Shown: one piece after another, positions 33,893 to 36,007 of the stretch | Position numbering within the stretch: the first letter of the stretch is position 1 | Layout of the letters: each line of letters opens with the position of its first letter | Source: Eledone cirrhosa | Taxonomy: Eukaryota | Assembly: GCA_964016885.1 (NCBI GenBank) | Contig: OZ024740.1 | Coordinates: 347,386,001 to 347,450,000, forward strand | Direction of reading: 5' to 3' | Length of the DNA stretch: 64,000 bases | The notes under the pieces: model-generated | Seen by the model: the letters and a program-made list of their open reading frames with translations, nothing else | Told to the model about the DNA's origin: nothing | Databases searched by the model: none | Program-made: the position numbers and the translations under genes

Positions 33893-34130
33893 TATATTAA
33901 TTCAAAATATTAACAAAATAGATATTCTTGTGATCAATTATATTTTATTTTACATATTTCAGAGGTACTGAGTTAAGTTCAACAGTACGTCCTCAACAGA
34001 TAAAATAAAATGATACATGACATACCCTAACATAGTAGATGGTTAAGAGTCAGTCATGGTAGTGATTAACTTATGGCAAAACTCAATATTTATACCCTAA
34101 TATTGAGAACATGAGATAATATAATACAAA
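33893..34130 (-). mobile_element. pLTR fragment of the 27.5-31.1 kb PLE family (mutated HHR)
   Basis: Colinear with 27522-27765. HHR core reads CTGTTGA and the cleavage-site U is lost. Confidence 0.8.
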
Positions 34131-34137
34131 CAATATA

Positions 34138-36007
34138 AAGTTTCCAGTGTCCTCGCTTTGCCTGGAAACTTACATGAGAATAGACTTTCCTGACGACGGA
34201 ATGCTTCATTATATTATTCTTCGGAAAATATATTTACTCCATTCCAGAAACTAATTAGTTGGAAGTAATATTTTAGTAAGTAAGTTAATTTTATAATTTT
34301 CTTATTTTACGTCTCTTATATTATTGTTTTGCAACCCCATGCATTGAACCACACTGTTATTAAGACAAAACCTATATATTTGCTAGCATTGATATGCATC
34401 TGTATGTATATATATGTTACTAGATATGAATTCTTTATTATTATCTCCAAATTATTTGTCGAGCAATATTGGCCATGACTGCTGCTACGGTTGTAGGCAG
34501 GCCGCTGTCTTATTAGCAAACCACTTTCCACTGATTGACCTCGATGTCACGTGTTCGATTCTTTTTGAATTTGCCACAGGCGTAGAGGCAGTGATTTTCT
34601 CAATGGCTTGGAATTCAGTCCACGCTTCGCTGTTTCCTATCCACTGAATTATTTTTTAATAAGTTTCCAGTGTCCTCGCTTTGCCCGGAAACTTACATGA
34701 GAATAGACTTTCCTGACGACGGAATGCTTCTCAGTATTATTCTTCGGAAAATATATTTACTCCATTCCAGAAACTAATTAGTTGGAAGTGATATTTTAGT
34801 AAGTAAGTTAATTTTATAATTTTCTTATTTTACGTCTCTTATATTATTTTTCTGCAACCCCATGCATTGAACCACACTGTTATTAAGACAAAACCTATAT
34901 ATTTGCTAGCATTGATATGCATCTGTATGTATATATATGTTACTAGATATGAATTCTTTATTATTATCTCCAAATTATTTGTCGAGCAATATTGGCCATG
35001 ACTGCTGCTACGGTTGTAGGCAGGCCGCTGTCTTATTAGCAAGCCACTTTCCACTGATTGACCTCGATGTCACGTATTCGATTCTTTTTGAATTTGCCAC
35101 AGACGTAGAGGCAGTGATTTTCTCAATGGCTTGGAATTCAGTCCACGCTTCGTTGTTTCCTATCCACTGAATTATTTTTAATAAGTTTCCAGTGTCCTCG
35201 CTTTGCCTGGAAACTTACATGAGAATAGACTTTCCTGACGACGGAATGCTTCTCAGTATTATTCTTCGGAAAATATATTTACTCCATTCCAGAAACTAAT
35301 TAGTTGGAAGTGATATTTTAGTAAGTTAAGTTAATTTTATAATTTTCTTATTTTACGTCTCTTATATTATTGTTCTGCAACCCCATGCATTGAACCACAC
35401 TGTTATTAAGACAAAACCTATATATTTGCTAGCATTGATATGCATCTGTATGTATATATGTTACTAGATATGAATTCTTTATTATTATCTCCAAATTATT
35501 TGTCGAGCAATATTGGCCATGACTGCTGCTACGGTTGTAGGCAGGCCGCTGTCTTATTAGCAAACCACTTTCCACTGATTGACCTCGATGTCACGTGTTC
35601 GATTCTTTTTGAATTTGCCACAGACGTAGAGGCAGTGATTTTCTCAATGGCTTGGAATTCAGTCCACGCTTCGCTGTTTCCTATCCACTGAATTATTTTT
35701 TAATAAGTTTCCAGTGTCCTCGCTTTGCCTGGAAACTTACATGAGAATAGACTTTCCTGACGACGGAATGCTTCTCAGTATTATTCTTCGGAAAATATAT
35801 TTACTCCATTCCAGAAACTAATTAATTGGAAGTGATATTTTAGTAAGTAAGTTAATTTTATAATTTTCTTATTTTACGTCTCTTATATTATTGTTCTGCA
35901 ACCCCATGCATTGAACCACACTGTTATTAAGACAAAACCTATATATTTGCTAGCATTGATATGCATCTGTATGTATATATATGTTACTAGATATGAATTC
36001 TTTATTA
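34138..36007 (+). mobile_element. Tandem array of 522-523 bp HHR-containing units (about 3.6 copies); non-LTR retrozyme-like
   Basis: Units start at about 34138, 34661, 35183 and 35705 and are near identical. No coding capacity recognised. One HHR per unit. Ends in (TA)n. Confidence 0.85.
34184..34266 (+). ncRNA. Type I hammerhead (also 34707-34789, 35229-35311, 35751-35833)
   Basis: actttc CTGACGA c-ggaatg...cattcc-a GAAA ctaattag TT ggaagt, with palindromic ACTAATTAGT. The fourth copy has G>A in stem III. Confidence 0.8.

Follow-up and report, generated by a model that had tools for sequence, protein, structure and literature searches.

How retrozymes are mobilised and how Penelope-like elements (PLEs) form inverted pairs are both open questions. 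The locus studied here raises them together: does a PLE pLTR that lies back-to-back with a retrozyme-like array record a single integration of two different RNAs, and does the junction name the PLE that mobilises this retrozyme? Both had been claimed in the initial annotation. PLEs have been proposed as retrozyme mobilisers on the basis of common hammerheads, co-occurrence and homology, as set out in the cited parts of PMC7229834 and bioRxiv 10.64898/2026.07.22.740005. If heterologous head-to-head junctions were single events, pure self-priming would be excluded for those cases, and retrozymes could be assigned to reverse transcriptases in a homology-free manner. We analysed the locus within its window, i.e. 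the whole stretch of 64,000 nucleotides, which is animal-type, AT-rich DNA free of N in which 87 (TA)n tracts were counted.

The described arrangement, a minus-strand pLTR back-to-back with a plus-strand 523-bp array and (TA)n on both flanks, was confirmed at positions 33898-36005. The left (TA)n tract (33824-33897) is the target and masks any target-site duplication. It is followed by a 5'-truncated pLTR arm of 238 nt on the minus strand (33898-34135), a 2-nt TA spacer at the head-to-head junction (34136-34137) and, on the plus strand, a retrozyme-like tandem array that comprises 3.58 units of 522-523 bp according to repeat alignment (34138-36005; 1868 bp). The right (TA)n tract (36006-36139) is also target flank and likewise hides any target-site duplication. 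The centre of the composite insert carries no target tract, and the hammerheads on both sides point outwards, which is the polarity of homologous foldbacks, as had been stated. A further insert, a tail-only solo of the family that forms the 11650-11839 foldback, lies in the same TA cluster (33778-33823).

With the comparison restricted to copies in the window, some 9 nt at the junction matched neither side. In run X4, two contigs align to 34056-34135, and their listed loose end runs on into sequence like that upstream of the pLTR family, resembling the stretch upstream of the 27.5- and 30.8-kb copies. Because these contigs reach 34135, the pLTR extends to this position, and only the TA at 34136-34137 is left unassigned. 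A spacer of 9-10 nt, with the 5' end of the arm set at the boundary seen at 30769, was overturned by the same contigs. Regarding microhomology at the junction, AATA is offered by both sides, but it was not used as clean microhomology. None of the contig pieces listed spans the pLTR-array junction, which therefore stands without independent read support.

The arm matches pLTR copies at 30771-31012 (87% over 243 nt), 27524-27764 (84% over 242 nt) and 39341-39510 (93.5% over 170 nt), and with E values of 1e-58 or lower these matches are not due to chance. It diverges by 6.6% from the 39.3-kb solo, and by 12.0% and 9.1% from the 27.5-kb and 30.8-kb arms, respectively. Judged by these alignments, the arm is a sister subfamily of the PLE at 27.5-31.1 kb (family A), and its closest relative in the window is the solo, a long-ended pLTR on the plus strand with an intact hammerhead core (39341-39603). 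The attribution of the arm to the PLE family at 27.5-31.1 kb thus holds at the level of the family, but the description of that element as coding does not, as it is a 5'-truncated, frame-broken remnant. This reference element (27524-31105, minus strand) retains the C-terminus of the reverse transcriptase (RT) and an endonuclease in an ORF remnant at about 29900-30690 (minus), lacks the RT core, and is bounded by a short sense pLTR (27524-27766, minus) and a long inverted pLTR (about 30760-31105, plus). A SINE-like copy sits inside its 3' region; copies of this dispersed repeat of about 200 bp were noted at 1563-1757, 5915-6110, 13885-14285, 16396-16720, 19367-19697, 28710-28914, 40294-40516 and 53384-53571.

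In a protein search that yielded one match, the endonuclease region of family A was 41% identical to residues 564-695 of the 709-aa protein P0002, which has RWK, CxCX5C and CxxC/CxH motifs and no CCHH. The CxCX5C linker is degraded in family A, with the first and last C kept, and intact in a second PLE of the window (PLE B); a Pfam search returned no match for the endonuclease fragments. A pLTR hammerhead and a (TA)n target are both present, and by these features family A qualifies as a Hydra-clade PLE. Its pLTR contains a type I hammerhead whose stem III is self-complementary. In the junction arm, the hammerhead (approximately 33939-34007, minus strand) is damaged, having lost two invariant positions, A6 (33996) and U16.1 (33950). 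The core is intact in the copy at 39405, and nearly all reads keep both invariant bases. The 3' end of the arm is of the short type, i.e. without a tail, and about 5 nt of it are common to (TA)n, while the 5' end lies within about 10 nt of the corresponding end of the inverted arm at 30.76 kb. A metagenome pattern scan with the pLTR gave 6 matches, none of which agreed with the window beyond the 20-mer. At 33980, 260 reads of run X14 and 213 of run X15 belong to a sister family of the pLTR in which stem II of the hammerhead is shorter and paired throughout.

The units of the array start at 34138, 34661, 35183 and 35705, and the last one is partial and runs into (TA)n. The array has 35% GC and is non-coding, its longest ATG ORF being 83 aa. 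A descriptor scan predicted a type I hammerhead in unit 1 (34184-34266, plus strand) that has a 6-bp stem I, the core CUGACGA, a C-A mismatch followed by a 6-bp stem II, and a palindromic stem III, with cleavage predicted after U17 at 34260. Further cores are located at 34713, 35235 and 35757; three of the four units pass the scan, and unit 4 keeps the core with a broken stem III. GUU is a poor hammerhead cleavage triplet. Free folding of the unit hammerhead was no better than that of shuffles (z -0.2), the ribozyme fold lies 1.9 kcal/mol above the minimum-energy fold, and the 150 Rfam matches listed, for the most part miRNA matches driven by microsatellites, included no hammerhead. A T-to-C variant at 34188, carried by about half of the reads, turns a U-G into a C-G pair in stem I. 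Diverged matches to the unit family are abundant in runs X1, X14 and X15 and arranged in tandem: joints lead from 34656-34660 to 34138, and the unit-end consensus precedes 34138 in 487 and 351 reads. A metagenome pattern scan with the 523-bp unit found 0 matches. Taken by its sequence, the array fits the operational definition of a non-LTR retrozyme given by Li et al. 2026 (bioRxiv 10.64898/2026.07.22.740005), ribozyme activity being a prediction. Pile-ups of read ends (33899, 34256, 34295, 34432, 34450, 34571 and 34650) were considered as element ends or ribozyme cleavage and rejected, as they coincide with AATT cut sites of the library. A 58-nt stretch of the unit (34295-34352) occurs in 637 (X14) and 529 (X15) reads and is then followed by one different sequence, indicating that this stretch downstream of the hammerhead is common to a related family.

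Head-to-head pairs are frequent in the window. We counted ten homologous ones (235, 1876, 3826, 11650, 23102, 27524, 46124, 54015, 55097 and 57647), leaving out inverted repeats of unassignable polarity or family (8683, 10050, 16691, 19930, 31195, 33105, 56393 and 63371). All ten have one short-ended arm and one arm with a tail of about 33-140 nt. The foldback at 11650-11839 has a non-family TA at its centre, matching the spacer of the pLTR-array junction; it is very young, with arms identical over 53 nt, and has mates at 1876-2992 and 57659-57795. The foldback at 54015-54718 and a solo at 54772-54927, whose long stem II is like that of the 523-bp unit, are non-coding hammerhead inserts in (TA)n.

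The same architecture at the pLTR-array junction could have arisen in one integration by a dimeric PLE RT/endonuclease, with each nicked (TA)n strand priming a different RNA, i.e. a family-A pLTR and the retrozyme, and both cDNA 3' ends joined through a TA overhang. The ten homologous foldbacks, the short end of the arm and the TA spacer at 11650-11839 all agree with such an event, as do a second heterologous junction at 46.9 kb and opposite-strand joints that the unit family has of its own (two rows, few reads). In addition, the cited part of PMC11167929 reports for the PLE protein of the anole that it nicks both strands and extends them, uses two internal starts and is a predicted dimer. Set against this, the mutation loads of the two sides differ about fourfold, unit and pLTR have no detectable common sequence that one RT would recognise, and homologous arms come from one donor lineage. 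Moreover, of the four foldbacks in which one arm bears body sequence, three have the long end on the inverted arm, in contrast to the short inverted arm at the pLTR-array junction, and none of nine listed read joints links pLTR to unit, a count of low sensitivity. We consider this scenario unlikely, albeit worth keeping in view, and are equally doubtful about the general proposition that Hydra-clade PLEs integrate as dimers, with one RNA primed per target strand and unrelated RNAs loadable. If it were true, both the junction at 34.1 kb (PLE and retrozyme) and that at 46.9 kb (two unrelated PLE-type families) would represent a heterologous twin insertion, and a genome-wide set of junctions of this kind would map a reverse transcriptase to a retrozyme without sequence homology.

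The mutation loads bear on whether the two sides are of the same age. The arm carries 5 private substitutions in 238 nt (6 with a probable one at 34120), which are absent from the covering window copies and from nearly all reads; at 34076, only 2 of 179 X14 reads lack the other letter. Over its 1868 nt, the array shows 3 indels and 10 substitution events that are each private to one unit (13 nt); they form a star without derived changes in common, and the 40 of 488 rows listed of the read table include no private site that extends across the array. A binomial comparison of arm and whole array gave p values of 0.021 (5 substitutions) and 0.006 (6), and a comparison with unit 1 alone gave 0.115, or 0.31 with a 4-nt cluster counted base by base. 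Hence the two sides do not appear to be of equal age, the load of the arm being about four times that of the array, with p values of 0.006-0.12 depending on the count used and thus of modest strength. Array units are 0.3-1.7% apart, and family-A copies 5.9-12%. The age test is weak given its small counts, a donor that may already have drifted and the possibility that run X1 comes from another species.

The lack of homology between the two sides also speaks against a single event. Sense local alignments of the unit with family-A pLTRs were no better than shuffles (p 0.10-0.90), so the pLTR homology expected of a non-autonomous derivative of family A is not seen in the array. When 12 families were compared under 2 scorings, p<0.03 was reached in sense orientation only by an AT-rich match to another element, PLE C, and by the 38.1-kb region, which had been chosen for its core-like motif. 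That region contains, at about 38070-38100 (minus), a short and degenerate likeness to the core and stem I of the unit hammerhead (shuffle p 0.015, region picked by eye). A 9-mer common to the PLE tail and the unit failed the shuffle test, and an AT-rich similarity to the 30.8-kb arm in antisense orientation (p 0.015) was regarded as noise among 48 comparisons.

Based on these data we tentatively favour two successive (TA)n-targeted insertions, to which we assign slightly less than an even chance; the weights given here to four readings are a rough personal weighing and were not computed. In the proposed sequence of events, pLTR and array would both be cargo of (TA)n-targeting, Penelope-like target-primed reverse transcription that arrived separately. 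An older, 5'-truncated family-A pLTR would have inserted first and then accumulated about 2-2.5% decay, in the course of which two core bases of its hammerhead were lost. The retrozyme would be the younger arrival: an oligomer, probably reverse-transcribed in rolling-circle mode from a circular monomer that had cleaved itself, would subsequently have inserted into (TA)n at the head of the pLTR. The 5' end of the array would have been sealed to the pLTR so that one TA of the tract was left or the rest was deleted, possibly together with a former partner arm. While the anatomy, the family identities and the mutation loads are observed, we infer the order of events, the circular template, the ribozyme activity and the involvement of some PLE as mobiliser.

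Two successive insertions would account for an arm that looks older than the array and for the lack of unit-pLTR homology. They also agree with the foldbacks, whose two arms are each other's nearest copies in all four testable families (narrowly at 55 kb), which implies that the RNA pool is not sampled freely for templates. Similarly, PLE mobility has been tied to element-specific pLTRs in the cited part of Arkhipova 2013 (PMC3846280). Three of the nine solo heads inspected (22.7, 14.4 and 48.7 kb) have no TA tract, so the missing tract at the junction is not diagnostic, and the insert at 33778-33823 shows that the TA cluster received another element. On the other hand, head-to-head polarity with 2 nt between the sides is the foldback pattern, for which 11650-11839 provides a TA-spacer precedent, and the short end found in every one of the ten foldbacks occurs in only one of the five solos of classifiable end, the other four being long. 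The second spacer-less heterologous junction at 46.9 kb also speaks against two separate arrivals, and the proximity of the 5' end of the arm to that of the 30.76-kb arm suggests an untrimmed natural end.

The reads, taken from 4 of the 16 runs listed, offer a further view of whether the two sides travel together. X1 contigs have no depth with the window letter at either 34076 (arm) or 34208 (unit 1), which fits a joint absence and counts against successive insertions. The X1 word share is 0.50, close to the 0.57 expected if all private words were missing. Arm and array may therefore be absent together from the X1 sample, but the same picture would be produced by another species or by filtering of the records. 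The nine listed read joints comprise three opposite-strand joints within the pLTR, two within the unit, the latter with few reads, one internal skip and three tandem joints. A pLTR-to-unit joint is not among these nine, a search of low sensitivity with RAD reads breaking at AATT and 569 loose-end rows beyond the listing. In one joint of the pLTR family the two sides are separated by TA, and one listed row connects unit and pLTR tail-to-tail with 35 letters between them (2 reads).

A single event could also have involved one RNA, namely a chimeric read-through transcript of an old family-A pLTR in tandem upstream of a retrozyme array, primed twice so that the pLTR became inverted. Such an event would jointly explain why the architecture is that of a foldback, why the arm looks older, why homology is lacking and why homologous foldbacks point to one donor. 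There are precedents for its components in the cited parts of the literature: unrelated sequence was captured between pLTRs in Adineta (PMC3846280), and twin priming is established for L1 (PMC2837659). Nevertheless, we consider it improbable, as the source copy would need the private variants of the arm, and no such copy was seen in X1 contigs at 34076 (filtered records of uncertain species identity), and a tandem pLTR-array locus is absent from the window.

Still less probable, in our view, is that the junction arose later, when two nearby inserts underwent deletion or ectopic repair, or that it reflects an assembly error. Inverted repeats are prone to deletion, no listed contig piece crosses the junction, and AATA is found at both ends. 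However, each of the two parts has private variants specific to its copy and a 3' end cleanly primed on (TA)n, the window contains no N, and the 5' end of the arm is not obviously trimmed.

The claim of a single integration of two RNAs therefore stands as far as the architecture fits, but the mutation load, the lack of homology and the one-donor foldbacks speak against it, and the data do not tell which is right. Successive insertions or a chimeric RNA explain the data as well as or better than a two-RNA event. The further claim that the junction names the PLE mobilising the retrozyme finds no support at present. With a decayed donor RNA the two-RNA model could be rescued, yet this would reduce the arm to a passenger that does not reveal which PLE is the mobiliser. 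A single locus at which the ages do not match is too little to establish either claim.

The similar junction noted at 46860-46948 is real as a structure. A minus-strand segment at 46867-46948 is the tail part of the family at 46124-46293 (family D; 7.5% apart) and adjoins, head-to-head and with no visible spacer, a 5'-truncated Hydra-type ORF (ORF B, about 46949-47900, plus strand). The family D tail looks somewhat like the 3' region of PLE B, but the resemblance did not reach significance (best p 0.10). The junction is likely to be heterologous, with PLE B's own pLTR unrecognisable in the sequence. The segment from 46867 to 51250 forms a stack of three inserts, namely the family D tail (minus), the PLE B remnant (plus) and a broken PLE C with RT and endonuclease. 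The 3' end of PLE C resembles a non-coding hammerhead family at 22722-22957 and 55097-55624 (83% over 104 nt), which makes these two a better homology-based candidate for an autonomous/non-autonomous pair. More PLE endonuclease remnants with Hydra-like motifs are located at 23102-24924, 24992-26607 and 3826-4661. As several Hydra-like PLE families coexist, any of them could move the retrozyme. Elsewhere in the window, an open stop-to-stop frame of 1204 aa (58220-61834, minus) encodes AP-endonuclease, RT and zf-RVT and is preceded by a 383-aa frame (62048-63199); from its domains, 58220-63199 is apparently an intact non-LTR retrotransposon.

We finally compared the locus with known systems, as described in the cited parts of the respective papers. 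Animal non-LTR retrozymes are non-coding, low-GC tandem repeats, from dimers to multimers, with a type I hammerhead per unit (PMC7229834; bioRxiv 10.64898/2026.07.22.740005). The array is alike in its low GC (<45-50%), its non-coding nature and the type I hammerhead in its units, but differs in its stem II, which has a C-A mismatch at the start and a long loop, and in the cleavage triplet GUU. Its unit of 522-523 bp exceeds the 150-450 bp given by Cervera and de la Pena 2020 (PMC7229834), but falls inside the range of 51-972 bp reported by Li, Clavereau and Pollet 2026 (bioRxiv 10.64898/2026.07.22.740005). In Xenopus, 24 of 57 retrozyme families matched known transposable elements, nearly all of them PLEs (Li 2026), whereas the array has no homology to the adjacent pLTR.

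Hydra-clade PLEs are characterised by (TA)n targets, pLTR hammerheads, a CxCX5C linker and no CCHH (Craig et al. 2021, PMC8557442). The window shares with them a C-terminal GIY-YIG-type endonuclease, CxCX5C, the lack of CCHH, a terminal CxxC, the hammerhead and (TA)n, but it holds truncated, broken remnants only, with the RT core missing. Tails in the window (about 33-140 nt) are often longer than the 30-40 bp given for PLEs generally (Craig 2021, PMC8557442). A one-sided tail is known from inverted-pLTR PLE insertions (Craig 2021, PMC8557442; Arkhipova 2013, PMC3846280) and has been tied to two internal RT start sites of the anole PLE protein, which needs a defined RNA region (Frangieh 2024, PMC11167929). 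Inverted junctions have been attributed to self-priming (Arkhipova 2013, PMC3846280), which would not give a heterologous pair, and in the open-access literature we found no report of heterologous PLE-retrozyme inverted pairs. The foldbacks of the window resemble the published insertions in their outward head-to-head arms and in the tail on one arm (10 of 10). In the cited parts of PMC3846280, PMC8557442 and PMC11167929, however, the inverted part comes from the same element, whereas at the pLTR-array junction the partners are unrelated families.
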